Shown: positions 24,084 to 44,302 of the stretch, one piece after another
Layout: each line of letters begins with the position of its first letter
Position numbering within the stretch: the first letter of the stretch is position 1
Assembly (NCBI GenBank): GCA_019894975.1
Contig: JAGXNO010000007.1
Span: 1 to 64,000 of the forward strand
Direction of reading: 5' to 3'
Source: Promethearchaeota archaeon
Lineage (GTDB): Archaea; Asgardarchaeota; Lokiarchaeia; Sigyniarchaeales; SOKP01
DNA: 64,000 nt
Program-made: the position numbers and the translations under genes
The notes under the pieces: model-generated
Told to the model about the DNA's origin: nothing
What the model saw: the letters and a program-made list of their open reading frames with translations, nothing else
The model's database searches: none

Positions 24084-24824
24084 TTATTTTGGATCATATT
24101 GATTTAGAACTTCTCTTGCTTTGGATATACTATCCACAATTAACCCATCAACACCTAAATCAATCATTTTTCTCATAGTTTTTTTTGTATTAATTGTATA
24201 TGTAAATACTTGTAATCCATGTTTATGAGCAAATTTTACAAATTCTACATCAACATTCTTAAACCGAGAAATAATATAAGGAAATTTCGAATCAATTACG
24301 GTTTGAATCAATTCTTTCCTTTTATCCCACTCAGGAATATATTCCTCTGTTATTGGTACAATCCATCCTAATTTTACTTTGGGATCACACTCTCTAAGGG
24401 ATAATAATACTTCGACATGGAAGGATTGAATTATTGTGGAATCTACTACACTTTCTTCTCTTAGTAGGTCGAGTACTTTACCAGAAGTTCCTCTTGTTTT
24501 TATTTCACAAAGGAGATTTACTCTTCCTTTAGCAAGTTCAATGACTTCCTTAAGTTCTGGTATTCTTTCACCCTCTTCAAGTTTTATTTTTTTCAATTCT
24601 TTTAAAGTCATTTGGCTTATGTTGCGTTTTATACCCATTCTTCTAAGGATATCATCACCATGAATCACTATGAGTTCTCCATCTTGTGTTTCATGGACAT
24701 CAAATTCTATGAAATCTGGATCCAAATCAATCGCCCTCTTAAATCCTTTTAGTGTGTGCTCAGGGGCTTCATCTAATGCCCCTCTGTGTCCAATTATTAA
24801 GGGTCTATTCCTTTTTTCACTCAT
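24084..24824 (-). CDS. glycerophosphodiester phosphodiesterase
   Basis: GHRG, PEHT, EFDVH, EIK, YTIN, GVDG. Confidence 0.92.
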   Translation of the reverse strand: MSEKRNRPLIIGHRGALDEAPEHTLKGFKRAIDLDPDFIEFDVHETQDGELIVIHGDDILRRMGIKRNISQMTLKELKKIKLEEGERIPELKEVIELAKGRVNLLCEIKTRGTSGKVLDLLREESVVDSTIIQSFHVEVLLSLRECDPKVKLGWIVPITEEYIPEWDKRKELIQTVIDSKFPYIISRFKNVDVEFVKFAHKHGLQVFTYTINTKKTMRKMIDLGVDGLIVDSISKAREVLNQYDPK

Positions 24825-24863
24825 ATTACCATATTAAAACAATATATCATTAGGGGAACAATT

Positions 24864-25577
24864 TTAATATAAATTATTCAAAATTTTTCTAACTCTGGAA
24901 ATATCATTAGTGATAATTCCATCGACACTTATCTCTACTAACTTCTTAATGCTATTATCAGTATTAACTGTCCATGGAAATATTCTAATATTATTTTTGT
25001 GAGCTTTTATTATGAACTGTCGATTTACGAGTTTATAGAATGGATTAATTGCATAAAACCTATTATTAATTGCTTCATTATGCAATTTTTTTCGGGATAA
25101 CCAACTTTTTATCCAACCTGTTCGTGTAGGTTCTAATGAAGCTAATTTAATTCGTGGTTCTAATTTCTGGATCTTTAATAACACATCATGTTTAAAAGAG
25201 CTGATTATTGTTGTATCAATAATATCTGCTTCCTTTATGGTTTTTATAATTTTTTCAGCAATATTTCTAGCTTTTATCTCACAATTTAACCTAATTTTAC
25301 CTTTTGTGAGATTTATTAATTCATGCAAGGTGGGTATAGTTTCACCTTCCCCACAATCAAGTTGCTTCAATTCTTCAAGGTCCATATTCTTAATCAAGCC
25401 GAAATGTCCGGTAGTTCGAAAGGTATTACCATCATGCATTATTACGATTTCATCGTCCTTAGTTTTATGTACATCAAATTCTATGTAGTCCGCTTTTAAA
25501 TCTATTGCCTTTTGAAATGCCTTTAAGGTATTTTCAGGAGCAATACTGCTTGCACCTCTGTGAGCTATTATTAACAT
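24864..25577 (-). CDS. glycerophosphodiester phosphodiesterase
   Basis: AHRGAS, PENT, EFDVH, HD, EIK, WTVN, DGIITN. Confidence 0.94.
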   Translation of the reverse strand: MLIIAHRGASSIAPENTLKAFQKAIDLKADYIEFDVHKTKDDEIVIMHDGNTFRTTGHFGLIKNMDLEELKQLDCGEGETIPTLHELINLTKGKIRLNCEIKARNIAEKIIKTIKEADIIDTTIISSFKHDVLLKIQKLEPRIKLASLEPTRTGWIKSWLSRKKLHNEAINNRFYAINPFYKLVNRQFIIKAHKNNIRIFPWTVNTDNSIKKLVEISVDGIITNDISRVRKILNNLY

Positions 25578-27378: not shown

Positions 27379-28110
27379 ATGCTTGATAATTTAAATGAAG
27401 GTGTAAGAAAATTCCAAGAATTTATAAATTATAAATTTACAAATGAACAACTTCTAGAGGAAGCGCTAACTACTCCAAAGCTAGGAAACGAATTAGGGAT
27501 ACCTGATTATGAATTTTTAGAAACTTTGGGAGATGCTGTTATTAAAATCATTTTTATTTTAAAATTACATAGTCAAGGAATAAAAGATCCTGGAGATATA
27601 ACAAAAATCAAAGCTTCCTTAGAAAGTGATAAAGCATTAAGAAAAGTTGCAAATAGAATGAATTTACAAGATTTTATTTTTAAAACTGAGTCCCAAACAG
27701 TTAAGGGAACCAGAATTTTAGCTGATGTTTTTGAAGCAATATGCGGAGCGATATTTTTTGATTCAAACTATAACTTTAGAATAGTTGAAGAAAAAATGAT
27801 TAATCCATTTTATGGCGATTTAGAAGCAACTATTGATAATTCATTGTCAGATCAAAAAAACGAATTATTAGAATTTTTACAAGCAAAATTTAAAACTTCC
27901 ATCCTTATTGAACTGGAGTATGAAAAAAGTGGATTCGAACATGATCCAATCTGGATCGCTAAGAATCCAATGATTATTGATAAATATGATCAAAAAGATC
28001 TTATAAAAATATCAAAAAACTTAAAATCAGGTAAATTTAGAAATAAGAAAGACGCTGAAAAGGATATTTATGCTAAGATATATAGATATCTAAAAACTGA
28101 AAAGAAATAA
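27379..28110 (+). CDS. rnc: ribonuclease III (RNase III domain plus dsRBD)
   Basis: LL.EALT, signature E.LE.LGD, AD.FEA..GA, dsRBD K..L.E..Q and G...KK.AE. Confidence 0.88.
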   Translation: MLDNLNEGVRKFQEFINYKFTNEQLLEEALTTPKLGNELGIPDYEFLETLGDAVIKIIFILKLHSQGIKDPGDITKIKASLESDKALRKVANRMNLQDFIFKTESQTVKGTRILADVFEAICGAIFFDSNYNFRIVEEKMINPFYGDLEATIDNSLSDQKNELLEFLQAKFKTSILIELEYEKSGFEHDPIWIAKNPMIIDKYDQKDLIKISKNLKSGKFRNKKDAEKDIYAKIYRYLKTEKK

Positions 28111-28329
28111 TATAATTATTCTTTATTCCCATCTATCAAGAATTTTAATTGTTCTACTTAATTAGAACCTTAATTTTTAATATATTTCCGCACTTTTCGG
28201 ATCTATACAACTTCAGCAATCTGAAAAAATTTATTTTAGCATTATAATATAATAAACTTAAAATACCACTCAATAATTTAAAAGACGTTATTATTAGAGA
28301 AAGAAAAATTAGAGAAGAGAAGATTTCAT

Positions 28330-29508
28330 ATGTCTGAAACACCTAATATGAAGAGAACTCCAATCATGGAGCAGTATGAAGAAGAAACTGGAAAATTAGC
28401 AATCTGGAAGGGTGAAATTTCAAAACAATTTAAAAAATGGGAACAGCAAAAAGAGAAAGAAGAAATTAAGAAACAAAAATTAGAAATTATTTCTGAATCT
28501 CGAGTAGAAAAGAAGAAGATGAAAAAAGAAGTTAAAGAAGACAAAATCGTTGGGAAAGATTACGAGCATTTAATTGTTGTTGAAAATTTACATAAGACTT
28601 ACTTATTGGGAACTACAGCTGTAGCAGCATTACGAGGTATAGATTTAACAATAGATAAAGGTGACTTTATTGATATTATGGGTCCTTCTGGCTCGGGAAA
28701 GACGACATTATTAAATCTAATTGGCGGTCTTGATACTCCTACAAGGGGAAAAATATTTCTTGAGGGTAGAAATATCTCAATGCTTAATGATAACAAATTA
28801 GCTGAAATTAGAAGAGAAAGAATAGGTTTTGTATTTCAGTTTTATAACCTCCTCCCCCAAATGACTGCTATGGAGAATGTAATGGTTCCTCTTCATTTTT
28901 CAGGTGATTTGAGTCGTCGAGGAAAAAGAAAAAGAGCAATGGATCTTTTAAGATTAGTTGGTCTAGATGAAAGAGCACATCATACACCTTCAGAACTAAG
29001 TGGTGGAGAACAACAGAGAGTTGCTATAGCAAGAGCTTTTGCTAATGATCCAAGTGTAGTAATTCTTGATGAGGTCACTGGAGATCTTGATAGTAAGACA
29101 GGGATCATGATTTTAAATCTCCTTAGAGATTTAAATAAAAGAGGTGCTACCTTCGTTGCTGTAAGTCATGACGCAGCAGTTTCAGAATTCGCAAATAAAG
29201 TACTTCATATGAGGGACGGGAAATTAACAACTGAAGGTGAAATTGGGGGATTAAAGGAAACTAAAATTATGGAAAGTACGAGAAAACGGGGAACAGAGAT
29301 TAATAAAGAAAAATGTAAGAGTAAAATCTTTCAATATCTCTTCTTAAATCAAGGAAAAACCGAAATAAAAATGAGTGAAATTAAGTTATACATCCCTACC
29401 GGTATAATCAACAATTTACCTGAGCATTTTGAGGATATTTTGCAAGAATTGATATATGATAATAATCTCAGTGCTAAAATTGATGGAGAATTATTAATCT
29501 TACAGTAA
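28330..29508 (+). CDS. MacB/LolD-type ABC ATPase with N-terminal extension and C-terminal winged-helix (PCI-like) tail
   Basis: GPSGSGKT, GFVFQFYNL, LSGGEQQRVAIARA, LDEVTGDLD, SHD. Confidence 0.93.
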   Translation: MSETPNMKRTPIMEQYEEETGKLAIWKGEISKQFKKWEQQKEKEEIKKQKLEIISESRVEKKKMKKEVKEDKIVGKDYEHLIVVENLHKTYLLGTTAVAALRGIDLTIDKGDFIDIMGPSGSGKTTLLNLIGGLDTPTRGKIFLEGRNISMLNDNKLAEIRRERIGFVFQFYNLLPQMTAMENVMVPLHFSGDLSRRGKRKRAMDLLRLVGLDERAHHTPSELSGGEQQRVAIARAFANDPSVVILDEVTGDLDSKTGIMILNLLRDLNKRGATFVAVSHDAAVSEFANKVLHMRDGKLTTEGEIGGLKETKIMESTRKRGTEINKEKCKSKIFQYLFLNQGKTEIKMSEIKLYIPTGIINNLPEHFEDILQELIYDNNLSAKIDGELLILQ

Positions 29509-29555
29509 AAACATTTTTATGGTTTTTAATAAAAAATTAAAAAAAAAAATACCCC

Positions 29556-32549
29556 ATGTCCCATTTTAAATTAATATTAAAATATGCATTTTTAGATCTT
29601 AAAAAGCAAAAAATCAGGACACTACTAGCAATAGTCGGATTACTCATCTCCGTTGGGTTGCTTACTGTAATTTTATTTCTAAATGATTCAATTTCTTCTA
29701 GTTATGTAGATTATCTCACAATCGAGGCTGGCAACCAGGATGCTGTAATTACAGTGAGGCACTTTACAGGAGAACCAGAAGACAGATCGTCTTACTTTGA
29801 ATTTGATCCAATTATAAATACAATTAAAAACGTATCAACTAGAATTAAAAATTGCATTCCAAGAATGGATATATTTGGAACCATAAACGTATCTGAGGGT
29901 TTCAACACAACTGAATTAACGGGGGAAGAAGAATGGAGTGTAATTTCAGCAGTAAATTTTAGCTTTGAGAATGATATAAAATTTGGCTCTTTTATCAATC
30001 CCAATAATAACGACTTTCTTAATTTAGAGGAATTACCTTTAAATCATTGCGCAATCTATTATGGATTTAATAATATTATACGGTATGCAGTAAATAATAC
30101 CATTGAAATTAAAATGCAATTAAGCCACGGAAATGTCAATTATACAGTTACAAAAAACCTTACGATAGATGCCATATTTGATTTTAATCTGAAATGGTCA
30201 AATGAATATCGAAATAGGCACCTCATTGTAGTTGATATTAACACAATATATCAATATTTTGGATATGAAGAGTTTAATAGGCGATGCAGTCAATTAATAC
30301 TTACATTCAAAGAGGGTAGCAGTATCTATGATCTTAGGGATTTGGAAGGTACAAAATCGATTGTTAAAGATATAGCAAGTGATATTCAAGTCGCTATTGG
30401 AATTAAGGAGTATAATATTGATTTACCAAAATTACGAGTTTTAGGAAGGGCAGAGTTTGTGAGTGTATTAATTGTTATCGTTTTTATTTTTGTATCTATT
30501 GTAGCAATGCTCATCTCTGGAGTTTTAATTAACGGAATTTTAAAAACCTCAGTAGAAGAGAAAATAAGAGAATATGGTATATTTCGCACACTAGGTGCAA
30601 ATAAGAAATATAGCCTAGCAATTGTCTTAATGCAAGGATTTTTGTTATGCAATTTAGGCACAATATCAGGAATAGTTGTTGCAGACTTGATATCTAGGTT
30701 TGTAATAATACCATTTGCAAATACAGTAGTATCAACATCCACAATAGGTTTTACTAGAATATCATTTTCATTTAGTTTAACTTCAATATTAATATCTTAC
30801 GCAATGGGAATAGGTGTTGGAATGATTGTGAGCATATCTCCAGCCTTGAAGGCAATGCGACTTCAACTAATTGAATCAATTCATCCGTATCGCCATGAAG
30901 ATACGTTATATCGTTTACAAAAAAGAAGTTCAGTTAACTATAAAATAATTCTTGTTGGTATTATTCTAGCAATAAATGGGGGTTTTGTTTTTTATTTCAT
31001 TCCGAGGTTATTAATTTCTAATGATTCAAATCTATTTGCAGGAGTATTAATCGCTGTATTATTGCTATTTAACATAGGTTTGACTTTAGCTGGTTTAGGT
31101 TTGATACCAATTGTTTTAAGATTTGTGATACAAGTCTTTAGACCTCTTGCAGGGAGGTTACATAACGTAATTAAAATTTTCGTATTTCGATATCAGAGAA
31201 GAAATTCAAGTACAGTAATGATTTTTGCATTATCTTTTTCTTTTGTAATTTTTACATCTACTTTAATAAATACTCTTTCAGCACAATCAGCAGCAAATAC
31301 TCAATTAACATATGGTTCAGATTTAGTTATAGAAACCTCCGGTTGGGAAGAACCTGACGAATCATATATGGGAGGATTAGGGGGGGGTCCCTTTTTTCCT
31401 CTGTCTATCAATGATGGAGATTTAAGAACTAATGATCTACAAATTCAACAAATATCTATAAATATTGATAAAGTTATGACGATAGAATTTGAGGAACAAT
31501 TACTTTCAATTGATGGAATTGAAAAAGTGTCTTGTGTTATTGCAAAACCTTATCAGTTAACTCAAATCTATTCTGAAACTGATAAAGAGTTCAGTGCGGA
31601 AATAGAAGATTATACTACAAGTCAAGAAATTACCCTTATTGGAATTGATGAGGAATATCTATACACTGTTAAAAGGCAATATATTGAAATGACTTCAGGA
31701 AGTGTAGAAAGTGCATTTAATAATTTATTTAATGATGAAGATGAGTATACCTGTATTATTTCTGAAGCAATTGCAACCGGACTTAATTTACGAATAAGAG
31801 ATTCAATTAGAATAGTAATCCACAGAGGAGATGAATTAGAAGTTTACTTATTTACGATTGTTGGGATTGCTAAAAGTATTCCAGGATTTCCTTTTGAATT
31901 TGGAGTATCGAATATGCAAGCAATAATGAGTGGTGTTTTAATTTCCCAGAACACATATTTAGAAGTTTTAGATATACCCCCAATACCATATGTTGATAGA
32001 ATATTTATTAAATTACGAGAAGATGGTATTGTTTCCCCTTATTATATTGAGGAAATTATTAATGAACTTTATATAGCAGACTACAACTATAATTTATATA
32101 ATCTCGAAAGACTAATAACTCAACAGCAATCTGCTTTTTTTATAATAGATACTTTATTTACCTTGATCACGATGACTACTGTTTTTATTTGTATTTTTGG
32201 ATTACTTTCTTCATCCTATTCAACAATAATTGAAAGGAAAAAGGAAGTTGGTATTATAAGAACACTAGGGTTAAAAGGGAGGGAAATAAATCGTTTGTTC
32301 ATAATTGAATCATTAATAATAATGTTAAGTAGTGGAACGATAGGAATAATTGTTGGATGGCTTTCTGCGTGGATAGTAACCTCAAATTTAAGCGTATTAA
32401 CGGGTGAGCCAAACGTAATATATGTTCCGTGGTTTAATATAATTTTAATATATTTTATTTCAATATTTATGATACTAATAGGAATGAAATTACTTTTACG
32501 TAAAGTCCGAAAAAAAAAAATAGTAGATATCTATAGAGAGACGATGTGA
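29556..32549 (+). CDS. FtsX/MacB-like ABC permease, internally duplicated
   Basis: Two coupling motifs (EEKIREYGIFRTLGA; ERKKEVGIIRTLGL), two large extracellular domains. Confidence 0.9.
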   Translation: MSHFKLILKYAFLDLKKQKIRTLLAIVGLLISVGLLTVILFLNDSISSSYVDYLTIEAGNQDAVITVRHFTGEPEDRSSYFEFDPIINTIKNVSTRIKNCIPRMDIFGTINVSEGFNTTELTGEEEWSVISAVNFSFENDIKFGSFINPNNNDFLNLEELPLNHCAIYYGFNNIIRYAVNNTIEIKMQLSHGNVNYTVTKNLTIDAIFDFNLKWSNEYRNRHLIVVDINTIYQYFGYEEFNRRCSQLILTFKEGSSIYDLRDLEGTKSIVKDIASDIQVAIGIKEYNIDLPKLRVLGRAEFVSVLIVIVFIFVSIVAMLISGVLINGILKTSVEEKIREYGIFRTLGANKKYSLAIVLMQGFLLCNLGTISGIVVADLISRFVIIPFANTVVSTSTIGFTRISFSFSLTSILISYAMGIGVGMIVSISPALKAMRLQLIESIHPYRHEDTLYRLQKRSSVNYKIILVGIILAINGGFVFYFIPRLLISNDSNLFAGVLIAVLLLFNIGLTLAGLGLIPIVLRFVIQVFRPLAGRLHNVIKIFVFRYQRRNSSTVMIFALSFSFVIFTSTLINTLSAQSAANTQLTYGSDLVIETSGWEEPDESYMGGLGGGPFFPLSINDGDLRTNDLQIQQISINIDKVMTIEFEEQLLSIDGIEKVSCVIAKPYQLTQIYSETDKEFSAEIEDYTTSQEITLIGIDEEYLYTVKRQYIEMTSGSVESAFNNLFNDEDEYTCIISEAIATGLNLRIRDSIRIVIHRGDELEVYLFTIVGIAKSIPGFPFEFGVSNMQAIMSGVLISQNTYLEVLDIPPIPYVDRIFIKLREDGIVSPYYIEEIINELYIADYNYNLYNLERLITQQQSAFFIIDTLFTLITMTTVFICIFGLLSSSYSTIIERKKEVGIIRTLGLKGREINRLFIIESLIIMLSSGTIGIIVGWLSAWIVTSNLSVLTGEPNVIYVPWFNIILIYFISIFMILIGMKLLLRKVRKKKIVDIYRETM

Positions 32550-32553
32550 GGTT

Positions 32554-35500
32554 ATGTTAACTATGAAAACATTAAAAAGATCAATCAAAATTATTCTAAT
32601 TCTCATAATCCTCATTGCCCCCTTATATTTCAATATTAATTTAATAAAGTTGAAGTCTAAAGGAATAGATGAAAATAAAAATGATTTCTTAAGATCTACG
32701 GATATTGCTGGAACAGATCTTTATGCTGAGCAAATTGAAGTATATGTAGCGGGAAACAAATCTATCATCAAGCAATCCCTCTTTTCAAATGACACTAATA
32801 TTTTTTCTCAATTCGATTTAAATGATCCTGCTTTCTATAAATGTAATGTATTAATTAGTGCTTCAAACACTCTCAAACCAGATATATTCCCAATTCCTTT
32901 AACAGAAAGTATGATCCCTGATCAGTTTGCTTCAGGATTCAATAGATTTGTGGGATTCTTATATTATGATGATGAAGTTATTTCAAGTGATGCAAATTCA
33001 AGAGCTGAAAGGGCATTAGAGATTATTCGTAGGAAATTTCAAATTGACCTTATCATAGTTAATGTATCTGAACCCAATTTTTTTCCTTTTGTAGGAGATT
33101 ATCCTGATTGGGCTCTTTTACTTAATGAACTTACTAATAATCTACCAATGGATGGATATTGGAAAGCCTTAGATCTTTCTCGCTTAACTAGTGAAGAATA
33201 TTTCAATAACCATCATTTATCCTCTACATTTATAATTTTAAATTCTTTAAACTTTTTCGAAGGTGATTTCGAGATTACTACTTCTCAATTAGACTTTAGT
33301 ATTAATTCCCTTGATTTATCTTTCTTGGAGAATATAGAAAATAATGAACTCATTGAACAATTTAATAATATTTTAGATAATTATGGTGAGATACTCAATG
33401 CTACTATTTCAGAGGATGAATTGGAGCAATTTTTTGAAATTCTAAATTCATTTACTTTATTGAATAATTCTCATTATACTAATTTAGTAATACAATATGA
33501 GGGATTGCCCGAGGGAATATCTGAAATAAAGGAAAATCAGTATAGGTTTGATCTATGGGATGCCATTGGTTATCATGGTGAACCTCTTGCACCCAGTGAG
33601 AAAATTTATATTGCTCTTGTAGGTGCTTTTATGACAGATATTGAGATTAATATATTATGTACTGAAATTGTAGACACAACCCCGGTTAATTTCGAATTTT
33701 ATGATTATCTTTTGGAGCAAATTGGACTAATTTTTTATCTTGCTGGTATTGAATTCGATATACAAGCGCTTAAAGAATATTCATTTGAATTGTATTGGGT
33801 AAATGAAGAGGGGTTCAAGAATACTTATATTAAACCTGTTAATGTAGGTGATCCTTATGATATAGTTAATTTACTCCAACAGTTAGGTTTTAAAGGTTTT
33901 TCTTATATTCCTACTGGAATCGTAAATCCGTTTGAAGATTTTTCAATTACTTATAATATTTCGAATTCAGAACCCAATTTATTACTTCGAAAAGAACTTG
34001 TCGGAGATAATGCTTCCTATGGAGCATTTCGAGATTTCTCGTATTATATATCTGCTGAAAATGTAGGAAACACTACTAGTTGGGGATATCCAACCCCAAT
34101 TCCTCTAGAACTTAACGATTTCTTTTTACTTTTAACATTAGGTAATCAACCATTAGCAGATGAATTAAATAGTGTACTTTGGGATGTAATTCGCATTGAA
34201 TACCCTAATCAATATAGTTCCTTGGAGGATTTTTTTAACTTTGATGAAGATCCTCTTATTTTTTATTTTGATTCTCTAGGTACAGGAGTTTACGATACAT
34301 TTTTTCCAGATATATTGGATTTTACCAATTTATGGCCTTACAACGATAAAATAGAGAATATTATTGATATAATTGTGGTAGGTTATCCGCAATTAATTAG
34401 CACCTTAGCAATATTAGGTTTATCTACTGAAGACCTTAGGAATATATTTACTAATAATAATAGTATATGGAATGATGAAAACTGGAAAATAGAGCCAGGA
34501 AATAATATTTCTTACTATCTCCACAATGTTTCAATCAGCGAAATAGATTCTTTTACTCCAATATTTTCTAATAATTTTACCATAGGAACTGACCCTCAGA
34601 CTCCTGAGATAATTTATGGAACATCAATTAATGGAACTATCCCTGAAATGGCACTCTCGATGGATACAGAAAAATGGGTTATAGAATCGGTTGAAAGGCT
34701 TTTAAATCAAAGAATTGAACTAAATTTCGTTTTTAGAAATGATACTTTACTGGATTTAAAGAAGGATCCTTTAGAAATGGTTTCAATCATTATTAATTTT
34801 AGTGCCCCAGATTCGTTAGATTCATTAGATTTTGAAATTTATAATTTTGAGCTTGAGGAATTTGAAAATTTGGAGCCTTATTTAACGTCTTTTGAAAATA
34901 ACTCATGGAAATTCTCAATTGTTAACAATAATAATAGCTTAGATTGGTTATTTTATCCATTAGAACAAGATAATCATACTATGCTTTTCAAACTTAGAGG
35001 AATTGATTCTGATAATTTTAATATATCTATTAATGACCTTGATGTAGAATTTTCAACACGTGATATAAATATTAATGAAGATTCAGGTTCAAGAGTTGTT
35101 TACGGCTCTAGTACAGGTAATGTTCAATATGAAAGAAGATCTAATTCCATATCATTGAGCAATTATGATATGGCATCAATTATCCTCACTTCTTCTCTAG
35201 ATAGTTATAGTTCAAAAGAAGGAGATCTTAATAATTATCATCTTAATCTCAAAAATATTGGTTCTAGACCTGCTGAGAATATTTCAATTTCTTTAAAAAT
35301 TCCAGGGATAGTAGGAAATACCGGCAATTTCATACTTGAAAATGGTAATTTAACACATTTTATATCAAAGTTGGAGCCATTTGAAAATAGAACAATTAAT
35401 TTTTCTTTTTACGTGCCGAATACAAGGACCATTAGTGAAATATCAATAACGTATAATAACCCTAAAAACGTTCAGGGAGGAATTTCGTCTGAAATTGTTA

Positions 35501-36474
35501 CCTTAACCAATGAAGTTTATGTATCAGCACCACTAGATTATGAGAATAAATTTCCTTTTGTAAGATTATTAGAAATCAAATGTGATTATGACAATACCTT
35601 GCTTAATCAAAGTTTGTTTAACTTTACTTATAGTCTAAAAAGTTTTAATCCTAATGGAATTAAAACACCAGATATTAACATATCTATATATGACCAGATC
35701 GGAGATCTTAGGAGAGTAGATACTAATGACTTATATTTTGAAGACTTAGAATTTAATGAAACAATTTCATTTAATATAACAATTAGTAAAACTGGATGGA
35801 GAGGATATTACTATCCTGCAATAAATTATATTGAAAGTTCAGAAGCTAAAACTATTCAAATCTTAAGCTCCTCATCAAGTATACTCGGAGTAATTAATTT
35901 TTCAATAACTAAATATGTAGATAAAGAGCATATTAGAATTGGGGAAGAAATAACTGTATTCATCGAAGTCAAAAATACAGGTACCTTAAAAGTAGAAGAT
36001 ATCACGGTCAGAGATACAACTAGTTATTCCCAATCAGATTTTATGTTAATTAACGGCAAATTAATTAATCTTATAAATAGCTTAGAACCTGGAGAAATTG
36101 TCTCAATAAATTATACAATTCGAGCAAGGAAACAAGGTATAGTCACTTTAAAACCAGCTTTCCTTGAATTTTATTATTTATATAAATTAGAGTTATTTTC
36201 TAATAATGTTTTCATCAAAGTCAACTCATCTCCATTTGATCAATCTGTCTATATTATAGTCGCTGGAATTGTGGCTATCACTATTCTTTTAATATATTAT
36301 AGTCAAAATTCTAGATATAAAAAGAGTAAAGATAAGTTAGAAAGAAGAGAAAAGCTTATATTAAAGATGGATTCAAGAGAAGCAATTATGGGAACAAAAC
36401 CCACCTTAAGAGACCAATTAAGATTTTTATCGAGATCTACCAAAGAAAAAAATGATGTGGGGAGGAAATTATGA
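32554..36474 (+). CDS. large membrane-anchored surface protein with DUF11/CARDB/COG1361-like Ig repeats
   Basis: N-terminal signal/TM; acidic, sequon-rich body; repeats I.[AVL][EK]N.G and LEP.E....; C-terminal TM plus basic tail. Confidence 0.75.
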   Translation: MLTMKTLKRSIKIILILIILIAPLYFNINLIKLKSKGIDENKNDFLRSTDIAGTDLYAEQIEVYVAGNKSIIKQSLFSNDTNIFSQFDLNDPAFYKCNVLISASNTLKPDIFPIPLTESMIPDQFASGFNRFVGFLYYDDEVISSDANSRAERALEIIRRKFQIDLIIVNVSEPNFFPFVGDYPDWALLLNELTNNLPMDGYWKALDLSRLTSEEYFNNHHLSSTFIILNSLNFFEGDFEITTSQLDFSINSLDLSFLENIENNELIEQFNNILDNYGEILNATISEDELEQFFEILNSFTLLNNSHYTNLVIQYEGLPEGISEIKENQYRFDLWDAIGYHGEPLAPSEKIYIALVGAFMTDIEINILCTEIVDTTPVNFEFYDYLLEQIGLIFYLAGIEFDIQALKEYSFELYWVNEEGFKNTYIKPVNVGDPYDIVNLLQQLGFKGFSYIPTGIVNPFEDFSITYNISNSEPNLLLRKELVGDNASYGAFRDFSYYISAENVGNTTSWGYPTPIPLELNDFFLLLTLGNQPLADELNSVLWDVIRIEYPNQYSSLEDFFNFDEDPLIFYFDSLGTGVYDTFFPDILDFTNLWPYNDKIENIIDIIVVGYPQLISTLAILGLSTEDLRNIFTNNNSIWNDENWKIEPGNNISYYLHNVSISEIDSFTPIFSNNFTIGTDPQTPEIIYGTSINGTIPEMALSMDTEKWVIESVERLLNQRIELNFVFRNDTLLDLKKDPLEMVSIIINFSAPDSLDSLDFEIYNFELEEFENLEPYLTSFENNSWKFSIVNNNNSLDWLFYPLEQDNHTMLFKLRGIDSDNFNISINDLDVEFSTRDININEDSGSRVVYGSSTGNVQYERRSNSISLSNYDMASIILTSSLDSYSSKEGDLNNYHLNLKNIGSRPAENISISLKIPGIVGNTGNFILENGNLTHFISKLEPFENRTINFSFYVPNTRTISEISITYNNPKNVQGGISSEIVTLTNEVYVSAPLDYENKFPFVRLLEIKCDYDNTLLNQSLFNFTYSLKSFNPNGIKTPDINISIYDQIGDLRRVDTNDLYFEDLEFNETISFNITISKTGWRGYYYPAINYIESSEAKTIQILSSSSSILGVINFSITKYVDKEHIRIGEEITVFIEVKNTGTLKVEDITVRDTTSYSQSDFMLINGKLINLINSLEPGEIVSINYTIRARKQGIVTLKPAFLEFYYLYKLELFSNNVFIKVNSSPFDQSVYIIVAGIVAITILLIYYSQNSRYKKSKDKLERREKLILKMDSREAIMGTKPTLRDQLRFLSRSTKEKNDVGRKL

Positions 36475-39400
36475 TGCCAAATAAACGATCAAAAGCACTA
36501 CTTATAGTTTTTAGTCTATTAGCCACATTTTTCTACTCGAACTTATTGGTTTTTCAATTATCTCAAAGTTCTTCTAGTGCTCCAGAATTTGATTTTAAAA
36601 ATGATTATATTTCATCCTCAAGTAGTTTTCAAAAAGAAATTATTGTGTACTTCAATAAATCTACATACAACAACTCTGTCATTTCAAAATTTAATTACTA
36701 TGGAGGAACAATTCAAGATGAATGGAATAATTTATTTTCTTCTTTTTCTGGCTTTGCGGGGATTATTCCTTCAGAACAAAATAAGACACTATTCCATAAT
36801 GAATTCCTTGATGCCCAAATAGAAAATAATGAGATTTTGGAAACTTTAATGAATTATGCTTCGATTCAATCAGGAGCAATCAATTCCAGTTGGTTTTTAA
36901 ATGGATACAAAGGGGAAACAAATTGTTCCATTGCCGTGTTAGATACAGGGATTAATCCAACTCATACTTTTTTTCCAAATGGATATGACCATACTGATCT
37001 CAGAGGAGATATTGTTGGTTGGGAGAATCTAATTAATCCTAATCCTATATCTGATGAAAATGGTCATGGAACATATATATCTTCAATAATTTCTGGTACT
37101 GGTAATTATGAATATAATTCAACTAATCCTATATCGTTAAAAATTAACGGAAACTATTCTCATACAGAGCTGTTTGAAGAATCCTCTCCTGCGAAAAATT
37201 ATAGTCTAAAAATTCTTTCATTTAATGCTAGCACTCCTGATTCAGAGATTTTAGTAAATTCGTCATGGAATTTGCAAAGCAGTGGAATAGATGATCTATG
37301 GTTCGAATTGTTTTATGAAAATAATTTGGTAGGATATTCTCATAACCTAAACACAGATGTAAATTATATTATAAATTATACAATTCCTCAAAATGAGATT
37401 GGGATCTATGATTTATATATAAAATACCATAAACAATTTCAAAAAATTCCTGTATTTTCGTTTAGGACCTCAACACGCTATTATCCTGAATTTTTTATCA
37501 AGGATTATAGATACAACACTGGAATAGCAAATGGAACAAAGATAGCTTCCTATAAAATTCTTAATCAGTCTGGAATGGGATATTCTTCAGATTTAATCTC
37601 TGCTTTAGCTCATGTTATCAAAAATAGAACTGCATATCACATTATTAGTGTTTGTTTGAGTATCGGTACAATAGGGGATGATGTGGGAGCAATTAATAAT
37701 GCAATAAATGAGGTTATTAAAAATGGTGTTTTGGTTGTTATTGCTGCAGGAAATTCAGGGATTGAAACGTCGGATGCTTTGAATAAATTAGCAACAAACG
37801 AAAATGCAATTGTAGTTGGAGCAATAAATGACAAAGATCAAGTTGCTTCTTTTAGTAGCATGGGGAAAATAGCAGGAAATACTCTTAAACCTGATATTGT
37901 TGCTCCAGGGGGTAGTCTATTATCTGGACACCGAACTATAAACTCTGCTGGTGAAGAATCAAATGAAATAACAACAGGTTATGGTACTTCTATTGCTGCA
38001 GCTATAGTATCAGGAGCAATAAATTTACTGATTGAGGCTAAATGGGTAAATTGGAATCAATGGGATCAAATGAACATTTCTGAATCGGTTAAATATCTTA
38101 AAGCAATCTTATTAATGACTGCTTCAGAAACGGGTATGCTAAGAGAAGATGACCCAAATACGATAGAGGATGAAAGTACTTATTCACCAACAACATCTTT
38201 TGCTCCTTTTACTTATGGTTTAAAAGATATTCATGAAGGATATGGAAGAGTAAATATTCAGGCGGCTATTGATGCAATTTCTAAAACTTTTGAAGTTAAT
38301 ACATCTGTTAATGGGAATCTGATGAACTCTCAAGAAGATCCGATAGGTTCTCACGTGTTTGCTCGTAAAATAGAACTAATAGAAGGTTACCAGTATCTCT
38401 TTAATCTCTCTGATGTAGATGCAGAGGATGATTTTGATTTATATTTATTTTCAAATACATCAAATCAATATGGAGAACCTATTTTACTAGAGTCTTCAAG
38501 AAAATGGTATGGGGATTTTGATTATTTTTATTTTACCCCAAAAAATAATCAAACAAACTGTATCATCACGATTAAAGCAATTGAAGGAAATTCTCAGTTT
38601 TCTTTGAATGTCTCAGTGGTTGAAAATCTTTTTGAACCTGAATTAAGAATTCCAGAAATTAATTATTTTGGTGGTGTTAAAAACACAACAATAATGAGCT
38701 TTCAGGAATTTTTTGGAAATGAGCCGAATAAAAATTACAGCATTGATAGCTATAGATTTTATATTGAATATTATGACAATGACACCTCAAACATTCCACC
38801 TCAGGAGGTTTATGTATCAATTATGGGGATTTCCACAAACTATACCTTAACAAAGTTTAATCCTCTTGATAATAATTTTACCAACGGAGCGCTCTACATA
38901 AGTGACTATATATCTTTCCCAAGATCTGGTTTGTTTCAATATTTTTTTATCACAAGTGATGGGAAATTTATTACTAGGTATCCAAAAATGGGTTTTTTTA
39001 ATATCACAATTGAATTTCCAACAGATAGTGTCCAATTTCCTTTTGAACATGATTTCGACGATGGCTTGGGTAATTGGACATATACTGGAACGGGTTGGAA
39101 TGTATTGAATCAGTCCAATAATAAAGATAATCGATCAAGAATTTATCAAGATTCTTGGAATTCATTATATTTTGGTACTCATCATAATTTTCCAGAAAAT
39201 TATACTTATCAACCAATTAGAATAACAGAAGACCCTTCCCTAAATGGATCTTTAATTAGCCCTCTTTATAATTTGACTCAAATTAATGAGAATAAAACAC
39301 AACCATTTGCTAAATTTGGTTTAAGAGTTAGTATCAATTCAGGTGATTTCGTAAATTTACAAATAAATTTAAATTGGACCGGATGGTTGACACTCAGGAC

Positions 39401-41303
39401 TTACACTGATGAAGAAAGCGATTGGTCTATGGAAGAAATTAACCTTACGGATTACATTGGTTATTTTGTTCAATTTAAATTTGAAACTAATTTAGATAAT
39501 ACATTTGACCCCATAAATTATAAAGGATTCATCCTAGATTATTTTTCCATAACGAATTATACCAATCATCACTCACCTTTAATTAAATTCAATTTAGATA
39601 AAAATATACCAATTACACATGAATCTAAATTTCATCAATTTGTAGTTTCATGCGAATATTTTGATTTAGATAATAACTATCCCGAATACATCTATCTTGA
39701 AATGGATACCAAAAATTACACTATGTATAATATTTATGGAGATTGGAACGCTAACTCCTCTCAAGTAGAAGATTATGGTATCTTATTCTTAAGATCCTTA
39801 ATATTTGAAGAAATTGTAAACCAATCTTTCCGTTTTCATATTTCAGATGGTAAATTTATGAACACTACACATTGGTATAATTTAAATAACTCTATTTTTC
39901 AATTTATTGAACCTATTCCGTTAGAATTTAATGTAATGCAAGATCAAAAGTTTATAGGATATGAGTTTTCAAGTAGTAATTTGTCAGATTATTATGTATT
40001 GGGTGTTCCTTTACCAAAAGAATTCAATGCTTGGTTAGGAGGGGATAACTCCTGGCATCCATTTGTACGTTTAGGAGAACACTTTATCTATGGGGGACTA
40101 GGACAAACTTATGGGAGTATTAATCAAGGTTATGGAAATAACTGGAATGCAAAATTAGTTACAAGAGTTCTTAGTTTAAAGAGCGAGTACAACATTTACC
40201 TTGAATTTAATCAGGAAATTTCGTTACAAAATGAATTCTTTCAACCCGATGATCAATTAGATCGATGTATCGTGTCAATTTCAAAAGACTTTGGTTCCTC
40301 TTGGGAGATGCTCAAGGAATACACATACGATACAGAATCCCTTTTTGGAATAGAAAAGATTGACATAACTGCATATTCAGGAGAGGATATAATGATTATG
40401 TTTACTCTAAACTCAAATAATGTAGTAATGGGTATAGGGTATGGTTGGTTAATAAATAACATATATATTGGTTATGATAAGACAACAGATTTTATCTCCC
40501 CTGAAGTAGAAATCATCAATCCTACAAACGAGACTACAGTTAAATCCCTCATTTCAATAAGAGCAAAATTAACTGATGATATTGAAATAGATGAATCGAG
40601 AATATATGTGTTTCTCAATGATAAAAGTATTGACAGATCAAAGCTCATATTTAATAGTACAACGAATATTTTAGAGTTTACTTGGAATACCAACAATGTT
40701 AAAGACGGTAGAGTTGAAATTAGAGTTGTAGTCTATGATAAAGCAGGAAATATTGCTGAAAATACTATTATAGTGAGGGTAACTAATGGAAGATGGTGGA
40801 ACCTGTGGGGACCGTATATAATTTTGGTAAGTTGTGTTATTGTTCTTAGCATTGGGTTATATCTTATCGCTGAAAAAAAAGGGAAATTCTGGGTAGAAAA
40901 AATAAAAGAAGGACGAGTAGAAAAAATTAGATTGGGTGACATAGACAAAGATCAGGCAATTAAAAGAATAGAGCTTCTTGAACCAGATGAAGAATTGAAA
41001 AAGTCTTTAACACTCTATTGTAAATATTGCCGTTCGTGGTTTACTGCAGAAAAATTTGATATAATTTGTCCAAAGTGCAACCATGACCAAATTTACGCTG
41101 CCTATAATTGTTTAAATTGTGGGAGATGGTGGTGGAAAGATGAACCGGGTGAAAATTTTTACTGTAAAAGTAAGGGTTGTAAAGGAATCAGATTAATCAG
41201 GAGAGATAAAAAGGATGTTCAAGAGCTTTTAGCTCAAAAAGGTAAAATTTTAAGAAAATTTGATAGTGAAAAAAAAAAATTTAGTATTCTGAATGGTGAT
41301 TGA
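36471..41303 (+). CDS. membrane-anchored S8 (subtilisin-like) serine protease, multidomain, with cytoplasmic zinc ribbons
   Basis: Signal peptide, propeptide, triad VLDTG / NGHGT / GTS, oxyanion AAGN, KPDIVAPG; C-terminal Ig domain, TM and four Cys pairs; ATGA overlap with upstream gene. Confidence 0.9.
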   Translation: MMPNKRSKALLIVFSLLATFFYSNLLVFQLSQSSSSAPEFDFKNDYISSSSSFQKEIIVYFNKSTYNNSVISKFNYYGGTIQDEWNNLFSSFSGFAGIIPSEQNKTLFHNEFLDAQIENNEILETLMNYASIQSGAINSSWFLNGYKGETNCSIAVLDTGINPTHTFFPNGYDHTDLRGDIVGWENLINPNPISDENGHGTYISSIISGTGNYEYNSTNPISLKINGNYSHTELFEESSPAKNYSLKILSFNASTPDSEILVNSSWNLQSSGIDDLWFELFYENNLVGYSHNLNTDVNYIINYTIPQNEIGIYDLYIKYHKQFQKIPVFSFRTSTRYYPEFFIKDYRYNTGIANGTKIASYKILNQSGMGYSSDLISALAHVIKNRTAYHIISVCLSIGTIGDDVGAINNAINEVIKNGVLVVIAAGNSGIETSDALNKLATNENAIVVGAINDKDQVASFSSMGKIAGNTLKPDIVAPGGSLLSGHRTINSAGEESNEITTGYGTSIAAAIVSGAINLLIEAKWVNWNQWDQMNISESVKYLKAILLMTASETGMLREDDPNTIEDESTYSPTTSFAPFTYGLKDIHEGYGRVNIQAAIDAISKTFEVNTSVNGNLMNSQEDPIGSHVFARKIELIEGYQYLFNLSDVDAEDDFDLYLFSNTSNQYGEPILLESSRKWYGDFDYFYFTPKNNQTNCIITIKAIEGNSQFSLNVSVVENLFEPELRIPEINYFGGVKNTTIMSFQEFFGNEPNKNYSIDSYRFYIEYYDNDTSNIPPQEVYVSIMGISTNYTLTKFNPLDNNFTNGALYISDYISFPRSGLFQYFFITSDGKFITRYPKMGFFNITIEFPTDSVQFPFEHDFDDGLGNWTYTGTGWNVLNQSNNKDNRSRIYQDSWNSLYFGTHHNFPENYTYQPIRITEDPSLNGSLISPLYNLTQINENKTQPFAKFGLRVSINSGDFVNLQINLNWTGWLTLRTYTDEESDWSMEEINLTDYIGYFVQFKFETNLDNTFDPINYKGFILDYFSITNYTNHHSPLIKFNLDKNIPITHESKFHQFVVSCEYFDLDNNYPEYIYLEMDTKNYTMYNIYGDWNANSSQVEDYGILFLRSLIFEEIVNQSFRFHISDGKFMNTTHWYNLNNSIFQFIEPIPLEFNVMQDQKFIGYEFSSSNLSDYYVLGVPLPKEFNAWLGGDNSWHPFVRLGEHFIYGGLGQTYGSINQGYGNNWNAKLVTRVLSLKSEYNIYLEFNQEISLQNEFFQPDDQLDRCIVSISKDFGSSWEMLKEYTYDTESLFGIEKIDITAYSGEDIMIMFTLNSNNVVMGIGYGWLINNIYIGYDKTTDFISPEVEIINPTNETTVKSLISIRAKLTDDIEIDESRIYVFLNDKSIDRSKLIFNSTTNILEFTWNTNNVKDGRVEIRVVVYDKAGNIAENTIIVRVTNGRWWNLWGPYIILVSCVIVLSIGLYLIAEKKGKFWVEKIKEGRVEKIRLGDIDKDQAIKRIELLEPDEELKKSLTLYCKYCRSWFTAEKFDIICPKCNHDQIYAAYNCLNCGRWWWKDEPGENFYCKSKGCKGIRLIRRDKKDVQELLAQKGKILRKFDSEKKKFSILNGD

Positions 41304-41335
41304 AAAAATGATATTGCGGTGAGAAAAGCATAGAA

Positions 41336-44302
41336 TTGAAATTATTCTTTTATAGACTCCAAAGACATATAAATCTACAATTTTTCAAGCATTCTTGGCT
41401 TGATCTAAAACGTGATAAAAATAAAGCAATATTCGGGGTATCAGGAATAGCAATTTCTTTATTTTTATTAACTGTTATAGGAATGCTTAATGATACAGTT
41501 AATTATAATTATTTGTTATATGTAACTTCTACTACGGGGAAAGCAGATATAATGATTACTAAAACCATTCAAACGGATTTAACATTTAATCCCTTTTTTG
41601 AAGAAGATATGATAGAAGATGATCTTAATAATATCGATGGTGTGGAAGAATTTTTTCCACGTATTATGATGTTAGTAAAAACATCTTCAGATTTTACTAC
41701 TTTAAGTGGTTTCCTTCAATTATATGGAATTGATTTTGAAAAAGAAGCAGAAAATGGTAAGATTGGAGATTTAATAATTGTTGATAATTATGGAGAGGAG
41801 ATAGGAGAAAATTACAATGATAAACCAAATATAGGAGAGTGTGTAATCCTGTGGAATGTGGCTGAGATTTTGAATGTAACTAGGGGAGATGATATTTATA
41901 TTGAATATCAGAATGAGCAATTAAGTTTAACTGTTATTGAAATATGCATTCAAGATTTAAAATTCATGCAATTTGAAAATTCGCTCCTTCTAGTTAACTT
42001 AATAGAAGCTCAGTCATTTCTAAACAAACCTGGCCAAATCAATTTTATTGTAGGGACAATTCAAAATCCAAAGAGTATTTATGATGCTAGTAACATAGAT
42101 CGTACAACGCGAAGATTAAGGAGAATTAGTGCTAACATACAAGATAACCTTAATATTAATGAATTTAGCATAACTCTTCCGAAATTAGAAGAACTTGAGG
42201 GAGGAGAATTCTTATTAATGACAGTTACCATAATCTTTTGGTTTATTACCATTCTTTCGATGATTATTACAGCCATTTTAATAAATAGTATCCTTTCAAC
42301 CTCTGTTGAAGAAAGAGTTCGAGAATTCGGGATTGTTCGTGTAGTAGGTGGGAAAAAATTATATACCTTGAAAATGGTACTCTTTGAAGGATTGATGTTA
42401 GGCTTTATAGGATCAGTAATAGGTATGATTCTCGGTGTTTCTTTTATTAGACCAATAGCCCAAAGTCTACTAAAATTATACAATTTTAATTTTAGCTTTT
42501 CTGATATAGATTGGGTAATAAAACCTCAAACCATTTATATAACATTTGCAATTGGAACAGGAGTTTCTTTAATCGTTGCATTATTGCCTGCTCTAAAAAC
42601 AGCAAAAATAAACTTGATTAAATCAATTTCTCCTTTTAGAGCAAAAGAAGAAGGTTGGGAAATTAAAAAAGAAGGTAGTGTCAATGTGAAGAGTTTCCTT
42701 GTAGGGATAGCTATATCTACAATCGGAATGATTGTTTTTATATTAATTCCAAATATATTCGTCACAGGCGATTTTATGTTAACGTCTTCGTTATTTGTAG
42801 GCTTACTGGGAGCAGTATTACTGGGTTTGGTTTTTGCTTCTATAGGAATAGTTCCATTAGTTCAAAAAATCTTTCTAGGTCTTTTTTCTCCATTTATTAA
42901 GAAATATAAAAATATTATCGGTATCTCCCTTAAAAGATATAGAAGGCGTAATACAAGCACTGTTCTTATGTTTGCTATAAGTTTCTCATTTATTTTCTTC
43001 ATTACAAGTGTAACAGAGATGGAATCTGAAAATATGGCATTAAACTTAAAATTTCAATATGGTTCAGATTTAGTTTTATTAAATCAGGAATTATATGATG
43101 AGGAAAGTGCTTTAACTTTAGAAATGATTGATGAGCTCAGAAGTTTACCTGGAATCGATGAGGTTGCAATGTCGCTTCATAATACATTTGATTTTCAAGC
43201 CGCATTATCGGCAATTTTCGATATAAGTGAAGGGCAGGTTGGGTTTAGTGGAGGAGGTGCAGAAGAAATTTTGATGAATCTTTTTGAATTTTATGCTTCT
43301 CAAGAAGAAATGAAAATTAAAACAACTGCTGGAGACATGATGGATTTTGATGTAGTAAACGCGGGATTTATAGGAATCAACGATGATTTTGTTGATATAA
43401 TTGATCCCAACCTACTTATTTGGAAAAGTGATGGAAGTAGTACAGGGTATTCCTTTAACCAACTGTTTTCCCGAAATGATACTTGTATAATAGCGAAATC
43501 AATTGCAAGTGTAGTTGGAATTAGTGAAGTTGGGCAAAAAATACGTATTACATTTTATGATCCTGCGAATCCTGAAAATAGTGGGTTACCATATAATTTA
43601 ACTGTAGTAGGAATCTCTGGGGGAATTCCAGGTTTTTTTAATTTCAGATCCAATGAAAATTCTGCTGAAGGAGGGGGAGTTATGGTTTCATTAGACAACT
43701 ATATGCGTTTAATGAAGGTTGAGAATCCTGGAGAGCCTAATATGATTGTAGACAAAGTTTTTATAAACCTACTTGATAAAACTGAAGAAAGTATTGAAGA
43801 AACAAAAGAAGACATCCGACTAATGTATCAAGATAAAGATATAACAATTGATGACGCAGTTTCTAAAATTAATTTTATGGAAGAAATGACTGAGAGACAA
43901 TCTTTCCTTATGGAGCTTATTTTATCATTCACCATAATGATAAGTATTTTTGGATTAGTAAGTAACATGTATGCAATTATGTTGGAAAGGAAATTTGAGA
44001 TCGGAATACTCCGTTCGATGGGTATGAAAACTCGGAACGTAAGAAATATGTTTTTAGTTGAAAGTTTAATTATTTTACTGAGTTCAGGTATTTTGGGCAC
44101 TGTGATTGGAACATATGTTGGTTATTTACTTGAAACAAACATGGCCTTAATGACAGAAATGCCCGTAATATTCAAAATCCCTATAGATACTTTATTGAGA
44201 GTGTTTATAATATCCATTTCAGTAGGTATTTTGGGAATCTATTTAATTCTTATAAAATTATCAAGGCAATCAATAATGGATATCTTTCGACAAACATTTT
44301 AG
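41336..44302 (+). CDS. FtsX/MacB-like ABC permease, internally duplicated (paralog of 29556..32549)
   Basis: EERVREFGIVRVVGG and ERKFEIGILRSMGM; shared RY.RRN.ST and YGSDLV motifs. Confidence 0.9.
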   Translation: MKLFFYRLQRHINLQFFKHSWLDLKRDKNKAIFGVSGIAISLFLLTVIGMLNDTVNYNYLLYVTSTTGKADIMITKTIQTDLTFNPFFEEDMIEDDLNNIDGVEEFFPRIMMLVKTSSDFTTLSGFLQLYGIDFEKEAENGKIGDLIIVDNYGEEIGENYNDKPNIGECVILWNVAEILNVTRGDDIYIEYQNEQLSLTVIEICIQDLKFMQFENSLLLVNLIEAQSFLNKPGQINFIVGTIQNPKSIYDASNIDRTTRRLRRISANIQDNLNINEFSITLPKLEELEGGEFLLMTVTIIFWFITILSMIITAILINSILSTSVEERVREFGIVRVVGGKKLYTLKMVLFEGLMLGFIGSVIGMILGVSFIRPIAQSLLKLYNFNFSFSDIDWVIKPQTIYITFAIGTGVSLIVALLPALKTAKINLIKSISPFRAKEEGWEIKKEGSVNVKSFLVGIAISTIGMIVFILIPNIFVTGDFMLTSSLFVGLLGAVLLGLVFASIGIVPLVQKIFLGLFSPFIKKYKNIIGISLKRYRRRNTSTVLMFAISFSFIFFITSVTEMESENMALNLKFQYGSDLVLLNQELYDEESALTLEMIDELRSLPGIDEVAMSLHNTFDFQAALSAIFDISEGQVGFSGGGAEEILMNLFEFYASQEEMKIKTTAGDMMDFDVVNAGFIGINDDFVDIIDPNLLIWKSDGSSTGYSFNQLFSRNDTCIIAKSIASVVGISEVGQKIRITFYDPANPENSGLPYNLTVVGISGGIPGFFNFRSNENSAEGGGVMVSLDNYMRLMKVENPGEPNMIVDKVFINLLDKTEESIEETKEDIRLMYQDKDITIDDAVSKINFMEEMTERQSFLMELILSFTIMISIFGLVSNMYAIMLERKFEIGILRSMGMKTRNVRNMFLVESLIILLSSGILGTVIGTYVGYLLETNMALMTEMPVIFKIPIDTLLRVFIISISVGILGIYLILIKLSRQSIMDIFRQTF

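Follow-up and report, generated by a model that had tools for sequence, protein, structure and literature searches.

To our knowledge, all characterised ABC (ATP-binding cassette) systems of type VII act through extracytoplasmic domains, and an understanding of those that are coupled to enzymes outside the cytoplasm is confined to bacteria. MacB pairs with MacA, LolCDE with lipoproteins and LolA, and FtsEX with hydrolase activators. In the complexes of FtsEX with EnvC, PcsB, CwlO or RipC, ATP switches the extracellular hydrolase, or its activator, via the ectodomain of FtsX (PMC7668044, PMC10694151). For the YbbAP–TesA system, the proposal is that hydrophobic molecules are lifted out of the membrane by a fused double-FtsX permease, which presents them to TesA (PMC12646458). 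Here, a five-gene block of an Asgard archaeon (Promethearchaeota archaeon) is described, which is located at positions 28330-44302 (+) of a 64,000-nucleotide (nt) stretch of DNA, referred to as the window (contig C153 of the host assembly). The block encodes one ATPase (A), two permeases (B and E), a 1306-residue surface protein (C) and a 1610-residue membrane-anchored subtilase (D). As far as found, and as judged from sequence comparisons, it appears to be confined to a single order of Asgard archaea of the Loki type, and no description of this gene combination was found in the searched literature. By analogy with the systems mentioned above, we propose with moderate confidence that the block encodes one envelope machine, in which two units, each consisting of an A dimer and a permease, would engage the C scaffold with their ectodomains, as well as D where it is present, and would work by mechanotransmission.

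The five open reading frames (ORFs) are on the same strand, in the order A (28330-29508), B (29556-32549), C (32554-36474), D (36471-41303) and E (41336-44302), so that one ATPase gene and two permease genes are found within the block. The junctions are short: 47 nt between A and B, 4 nt between B and C, a 4-nt ATGA overlap between C and D, and 32 nt between D and E. This tight spacing, including the overlap, points to co-translation. A 219-nt AT-rich intergenic segment (28111..28329, +), which precedes the A gene and has a TATA-like run near 28242-28256, is read from its sequence as a putative promoter region. The host assembly (3.9 Mb, 95% complete) holds a single copy of the block. The ORF list and the hydropathy profiles reproduce what a preliminary description of this DNA had claimed about the five ORFs, their order, lengths and spacing, and the C-terminal anchors of C and D.

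When the five proteins are mapped onto 20-kb regions of twelve genomes, genus g1, three genera of family f2 (g2, g5 and g9) and family f3 all show the A-B-C-D-E order, and neighbouring genes in these relatives mostly overlap by, or are separated by, only a few nt. The preliminary description had named a gene order that is not conserved in related genomes as an outcome that would speak against it, and this is not what is seen. The sequence identities across families are 57-63% for A, 36-40% for B and E when compared with their own orthologs (28-31% when compared with the paralog) and 25-31% for C and D. The genes that flank the block in the window (RNase III, Ham1 and the ribosomal proteins S15 and S3Ae) are found beside it again in the same genus only; the flanks change while the order persists, which indicates that the block travels as a unit. 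Family f4 carries the block as A-B-C-E, where E follows directly on C. The constant core is formed by the ATPase, the two permeases and C, and the protease D is an add-on.

Full-length C is present as one copy in 22 of 24 genomes of genus g1, in 10 of 11 of family f2, in the single genome of family f3 and in all four of family f4. It is found only within the order; elsewhere in the phylum, only its ~110-residue TRAP-beta/DUF11 domain with a transmembrane (TM) helix is found, in proteins of ~460-490 residues, and at six loci of such domain-sharing proteins in other Asgard families there is no adjoining MacB-type ABC. The preliminary description had stated that COG1361-type surface proteins often lie beside such ABCs in archaea; the six loci cover Asgard families alone. 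Orthologs of the D stalk are found in 88 of 101 genomes of family f1, in 13 of 14 of f2 and in the one genome of f3. In family f4 there is no D, and the only match to the D stalk is a partial-domain match in an unrelated 1864-residue ORF on another contig. In genera g12 and g16, which belong to the family of the window itself, no match to C was found, and the D stalk has only partial-domain matches, save for one g16 genome with a full-length match. The block is widespread and is also present in closed single-contig genomes of the order. In one closed genome (G005:C1, L020), the block ends after a 965-residue C fragment, and a D fragment (3104674-3106194) is located 1.5 Mb away; this split reflects either a rearrangement or a misassembly.

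The ATPase A (392 residues; Pfam ABC_tran, 4.6e-36) has its nucleotide-binding domain at residues ~82-300, and the ortholog alignment shows the motifs GPSGSGKT (Walker A), LSGGEQQR (signature) and LDE (Walker B), as expected for a cytoplasmic nucleotide-binding domain of the MacB/LolD/FtsE type. Its best NCBIfam matches are LolD (1e-70), MacB and FtsE, all of them below the equivalog cut-offs. A reaches its length of 392 residues because an N-terminal extension of ~80 residues and a C-terminal domain of ~90 residues are added to this domain. In the same alignment, the Lys/Glu-rich extension (residues 1-80) is found in genus g1 only, and the C-terminal domain is found in every family of the order, including f4. 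The possibility that this domain co-occurs only with D was dropped, since the D-less family f4 has it too. The domain may be winged-helix-like. Its assignment as a PCI domain is a lead only, with E values of 0.0043 for the isolated domain of the window and 3.4e-4 for an f4 ortholog, the only one of ten whole A orthologs that touches the PCI model, both under the Pfam cut-off. In the window, the sequence at Walker B (29071-29079) is LDEVTG, whereas LDEPTG is present in all relatives that were examined; the catalytic glutamate is retained. A 22-residue motif in the N-terminus of A (28375-28440) recurs in an AAA+ ORF (13970-14035) with seven identical and three similar positions; this likeness was set aside, being inseparable from chance and lying in the genus-specific extension.

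The permeases B (997 residues) and E (988 residues, TTG start, with GGTGA 12 nt upstream) each match Pfam FtsX in two stretches (9.6e-33 for E), and B also matches MacB_PCD at residues 554-822. The hydropathy profiles show ~10 TM segments in each, arranged as 4+2+4, and two ectodomains of ~240-290 residues, after TM1 and TM7; in B these are at residues ~49-291 and ~575-858. Each permease is therefore a single chain with two FtsX-type units, each of four TM segments with a large ectodomain between the first and the second, which is the type VII topology in the arrangement known from YbbP, ADOP and BceB. The two coupling helices that had been ascribed to each permease would follow from this duplication. 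The sequence matches in the PDB are with YtrF, MacB, LolC/E/F and FtsX. The scores remain far below the curated-family cut-offs (45.7 and 56.1 bits versus 622 for ADOP, TIGR03434, and 18 versus 999 for YbbP, NF041854), and by sequence the permeases are best described as sharing the YbbP/ADOP architecture while not being members of these families. B and E, which are 31% identical, are each other's only full-length relatives in the genome, which agrees with the earlier view that they are internally duplicated paralogs of the MacB/FtsX type. The third FtsX-domain gene of the genome is within a 1396-residue ORF (C96:19851-20774, +) and is 26% identical to E over 300 residues. In the twelve mapped regions, B orthologs are always 5' of C, E orthologs are always last, and the positions are never swapped. 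These fixed positions indicate that B and E diverged before the radiation of the order and are not interchangeable. The nearest duplicated permeases outside the Loki-type archaea have ~25% identity, for example in a Verrucomicrobiae cluster. The relatives of E at ~25% identity also include a 1344-residue 'FtsX-like permease family' protein in a record of the fungus Paraphysoderma sedebokerense, by which duplicated FtsX permeases are present in eukaryote records too.

The family matches also allow for a simpler explanation, in which the block encodes two ordinary MacB-type exporters (for peptides, lipids or toxic compounds) sharing one ATPase, with C and D being co-regulated with these exporters and not touching them. 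Exporters, namely MacB, DevA/DevC and the bacteriocin and darobactin exporters, are indeed among the NCBIfam matches of the ATPase and the permeases, and relatives of the permeases are named 'antimicrobial peptide transport system permease' in the databases. However, in all families that were examined C lies between the two permease genes, separated from or overlapping its neighbours by 4 nt, at ~30% identity and with changing flanks, which this explanation does not account for. With the DUF11/TRAP-beta proteins at the six loci outside the order not being beside such ABCs, the linkage is judged to be specific and not incidental. We consider it unlikely.

C is the constant non-ABC member of the block. 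It is a type I surface protein with a signal-like N-terminal segment and a single C-terminal TM helix, as seen from the hydropathy profile. Its ectodomain consists of a head (residues 50-665; 32701..34548, +), a stalk (residues ~666-1116; 34549..35901, +) and a membrane-proximal domain (residues 1117-1223; 35902..36222, +), followed by the TM anchor (residues 1227-1252) and a basic cytoplasmic tail of 54 residues, which is conserved in the tail alignment (anchor and tail, 36232..36471, +). The membrane-proximal domain, of the TRAP-beta/DUF11/CARDB type, is the sole domain of C that is recognisable by Pfam, above the cut-offs for TRAP_beta (48.9 versus 22.4 bits), DUF11 (33.4 versus 24.6 bits) and CARDB (26.8 versus 22.7 bits). 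A search of the PDB with the C profile (A1) matched only TRAP-beta (E 2.7e-5) and no PIGT. The AlphaFold2 model of the ectodomain (residues 40-1228), built from a 20-row alignment, has a predicted local distance difference test score of 81 and a predicted template-modelling score (pTM) of 0.72, which points to a compact body and not to beads on a string. In this model the first ~600 residues are mixed alpha/beta, with a long curved β-sheet packed with helices, and the remainder is β-sandwich, arranged in the stalk as an array of Ig-like domains. The name 'Ig-repeat protein', which had been given to C, thus applies to the stalk and not to the N-terminal part.

Database-wide, 210 relatives are found with residues 40-1110 of C and 260 with the head profile, all of these of the Promethearchaeota type. 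Two C orthologs of different genomes (G012:C46:28116-32045 and G018:C193:2-2485) have one in-frame TAG each within a frame that is otherwise open; this may point to an error in sequencing, to a pseudogene or to a stop that is recoded. The relatives are annotated as 'hypothetical', 'BatD' or 'COG1361 S-layer family', and the protein atlas provides weak CARDB/COG1361 leads for the whole of C and none usable for the head. Given such annotations, and the large size, the type I anchor and the many Ig-like domains, C could be viewed as the main surface-coat (S-layer-like) protein, with the protease D serving to mature it or turn it over, and with the ABC units anchoring or remodelling the coat. We regard this as very unlikely when considering the proteome of cultured Promethearchaeum syntrophicum, in which no candidate S-layer proteins were found and for which the authors argue that there is no S-layer (PMC11284389), the genera g12 and g16, which are without a C match, and the model, which is compact and has a scaffold-like head instead of a lattice-forming repeat.

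The closest solved fold of the C head, as judged from the predicted models, is that of PIGT/Gpi16. PIGT scaffolds GPAA1, PIGK and PIGS in the eukaryotic glycosylphosphatidylinositol (GPI) transamidase, and its lumenal part is a 'half-rib cage' of ten twisted strands with helices, followed by a β-sandwich and a TM helix (PMC9098846). With the model of the head alone, the four top Foldseek matches are PIGT chains (E 9e-10 to 1e-6), followed by the FMO protein (1.5e-4). The next structural matches of the head are Pbn1 (7.1), the FMO protein (6.9) and two chains of oligosaccharyltransferase (OST) entries (5.4-5.7), human OST-A (6s7o, chain E) and yeast OST (6c26, chain 1). With the whole ectodomain, Foldseek finds only generic Ig-array matches (such as integrin legs and alpha-2-macroglobulin), and the resemblance to PIGT is exposed by VIA-align and by the head-only model alone. 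The template-modelling scores between the predicted C head and PIGT are 0.27-0.37, with a root mean square deviation of ~8 Å. The comparison is with the structures of the PDB, and the fold of the C head may be commoner among prokaryotes than the PDB shows. In the models, C has the same order of elements as PIGT/Gpi16 (7w72, 7wld and 9ub7), that is, a rib-cage lobe, a β-sandwich and a C-terminal TM helix. C has over twice the length of PIGT, about four additional Ig-like domains and, ahead of the anchor, the added TRAP-beta-like domain; its neighbouring protease belongs to family S8, whereas the partner of PIGT, PIGK, belongs to family C13; and C faces the cell exterior.

At the sequence level, the Pfam family Gpi16 (PF04113) has no match on C, only chance-level matches in 41 relatives and none in 301 Asgard genomes, in a search that lacked a member of the family as positive control. 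Of the partners of PIGT (PIGK, GPAA1, PIGU and PIGS), PIG-U and Gaa1 were looked for in the host genome and not found. A Peptidase_C13 match (the legumain/PIGK family; 34.1 bits, above the Pfam cut-off) is present in a 497-residue ORF (C92:33659-34306, +), which is unlinked to the block. Based on the modelled fold, PIGT would have the nearest known fold, and C is not filed as a member of the Gpi16 family. A bolder interpretation would be that C is a highly diverged true relative of PIGT/Gpi16, that C and D are the archaeal counterpart of the PIGT–PIGK core and that the flanking type VII ABC units lift C-terminally anchored surface proteins from the membrane and offer them for cleavage or anchor exchange. 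We consider this quite improbable; if it were true, the block would be a prokaryotic model for the origin of the GPI-transamidase scaffold in the Asgard lineage. The accessible part of a 2026 study assigns an Asgard ancestry to the GPI-transamidase complex at the pathway level and does not name subunits (PMC12872458). With no Gpi16 at the sequence level in the 301 Asgard genomes, a candidate at the structure level that is encoded beside a protease provides a concrete and testable object.

D is a type I membrane-anchored subtilase (Pfam Peptidase_S8, 6.3e-39, 134.4 bits versus a cut-off of 21.8), with a signal-like N-terminal segment and a single C-terminal TM helix in its hydropathy profile. 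Its closest solved relative is of the Thermococcus Tk-SP type (3afg, 1e-27). The catalytic domain (residues 148-556; 36912..38138, +) has an insertion of ~130 residues between the histidine and the oxyanion asparagine. As had been noted before, the triad is intact, with Asp158 (DTG), His199 (GHGT) and Ser507 (GTSIA), to which Asn428 (AAGN) is added, and D belongs to family S8. The Inhibitor_I9 propeptide family was not detected in residues 1-150. The four active-site residues are kept in 120 of 122 relatives of D and are lost only in two sequences of genus g5. In this genus full-length D is retained with Gly, Leu, Asp and Ser in place of Asp, His, Asn and Ser (that is, D->G, H->L and N->D), and the keeping of a degenerate D implies that D must have a non-catalytic role under selection. 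The stalk (residues 560-1440; 38148..40790, +) is lineage-specific, with domains resembling a Reelin subrepeat and Ig-like Big_7 domains near the membrane, and no Pfam family is found on residues 555-1230. All 186 database relatives of the stalk are of the same lineage, being annotated, for example, as 'S8 family serine peptidase'. The first domain of the stalk (38190-38975, residues ~575-835) is found with 27-51% identity in many other ORFs of 500-2200 residues in the order; from its sequence, it looks like a lineage-specific module common to several giant proteins.

The TM helix of D (residues 1443-1470) is followed by a basic cytoplasmic tail of 140 residues (helix and tail, 40797..41300, +) with four conserved cysteine pairs, of which Cys1517, Cys1520, Cys1533, Cys1536, Cys1547, Cys1550 and Cys1565 are invariant across the families. 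The match of the tail with Pfam DZR is weak (E 0.02), and the cysteine pairs are read as a putative double zinc ribbon. Extracellular subtilases do not usually have such a tail, which suggests that D makes a contact in the cytoplasm.

C and D are both very large, are anchored by a single helix and have conserved tails, and the block is self-contained. It can be considered that the ABC units are a device for the biogenesis or quality control of these two proteins, extracting, inserting or releasing their anchors in a LolCDE-like manner, and the permeases have LolC and LolE among their best matches, both by structure and by family. Nevertheless, C and D have ordinary signal-like N-termini without a lipobox, no LolA-like release factor is encoded in the block, and it is left unexplained why two permeases that differ from each other would be needed when there are only one or two clients. 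We find this explanation rather improbable.

In the envelope machine that we favour, the single ATPase would energise the two paralogous permeases, and a full type VII ABC transporter would consist of one fused permease and an ATPase dimer. Going by FtsEX and YbbAP–TesA, pumping a solute across the membrane is probably not what these ABC units do; instead, ATP binding and hydrolysis would be converted into a movement of the ectodomains, and this movement may act on the C scaffold and the D protease, or may hand membrane-embedded material to these. The joining of the five proteins into one complex, the mechanotransmission step and the substrate are inferred. If the cytoplasmic side also takes part, one would expect what is seen, namely conservation of the C and D tails and of the additional ATPase domain. 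Further points in favour of such a machine are the likeness of the C head to the scaffold subunit that holds a eukaryotic protease, and the published example of an ABC unit with a fused double-FtsX permease that docks to a hydrolase (PMC12646458).

Several observations weigh against this proposal. D is absent in f4 and catalytically degenerate in g5, and control of a protease cannot therefore be a universal function. The absence of a C match in g12 and in most of g16 shows that the machine is dispensable. Many systems of the MacB family are true exporters, and mechanotransmission is one known mode among several. The structures were modelled by AlphaFold, and the alignments used for this were shallow (15-20 rows). 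A complex prediction for the C head (residues 50-634) and the D catalytic domain (residues 148-556) gave a score of 0.00 (mark, 0.32) and counts neither way. The preliminary description had proposed a machine that exports, positions or activates a surface protease and its scaffold or substrate; the protease as the core client is not retained, given the A-B-C-E block of f4 and the degenerate D of g5, and the ABC units and C can function without a working protease. The pairing of an ABC system with an extracytoplasmic hydrolase, which it had also put forward, has a published precedent in YbbAP–TesA (PMC12646458), and its term 'scaffold' would fit C, because the modelled C head resembles PIGT. 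The shedding of a surface layer and the digestion of extracellular protein are speculation.

Outside the block, the gene directly 5' of it (27379-28110, +) encodes an RNase III domain (Pfam Ribonuclease_3, 1.2e-16), and it is found next to the block in this genus alone. At 24084-25577 (-) there are two glycerophosphodiester phosphodiesterase (GDPD) genes in tandem, encoding 246 and 237 residues.

When compared with the closest known systems, the block shares with YbbAP–TesA a MacB-type ATPase, a fused and duplicated FtsX permease, two ectodomains and an adjoining gene for an extracytoplasmic hydrolase, and mechanotransmission is the proposed mode of action. The differences are that the window has two different fused permeases per ATPase gene, that its hydrolase is a 1610-residue anchored S8 protease, whereas TesA is a small soluble esterase, that its constant partner is the 1306-residue scaffold, that its ATPase has an extra C-terminal domain, and that its host, an archaeon, has no periplasm enclosed by an outer membrane. 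FtsX is a single, dimerising unit of four TM segments, whereas the permeases of the window are fused. The partners of FtsX are peptidoglycan hydrolases bound through coiled coils, whereas the window has neither peptidoglycan nor a coiled-coil partner; the FtsE and FtsX equivalog scores of NCBIfam are not reached by the proteins of the window. The membrane-proximal domain of C is above the cut-offs of the TRAP-beta (SSR2)/COG1361 proteins and is directly followed by the TM helix, as in these proteins, but the match spans ~110 of the 1306 residues of C, whereas TRAP-beta is a translocon-associated subunit of 183 residues. The block can be seen as a conserved and self-contained archaeal version of these systems, unusual in combining two fused permeases, one ATPase that has a further domain, and two anchored partner proteins of giant size. 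PIGT and TRAP-beta, which the C head and the membrane-proximal domain resemble, respectively, are both subunits of machines of the eukaryotic endoplasmic reticulum lumen, and it is this scaffold, with its PIGT-like and TRAP-beta-like parts, in which specialists would be most interested. We rate the gene combination as new and its kind as known, being that of a type VII ABC system with an extracytoplasmic partner or hydrolase.

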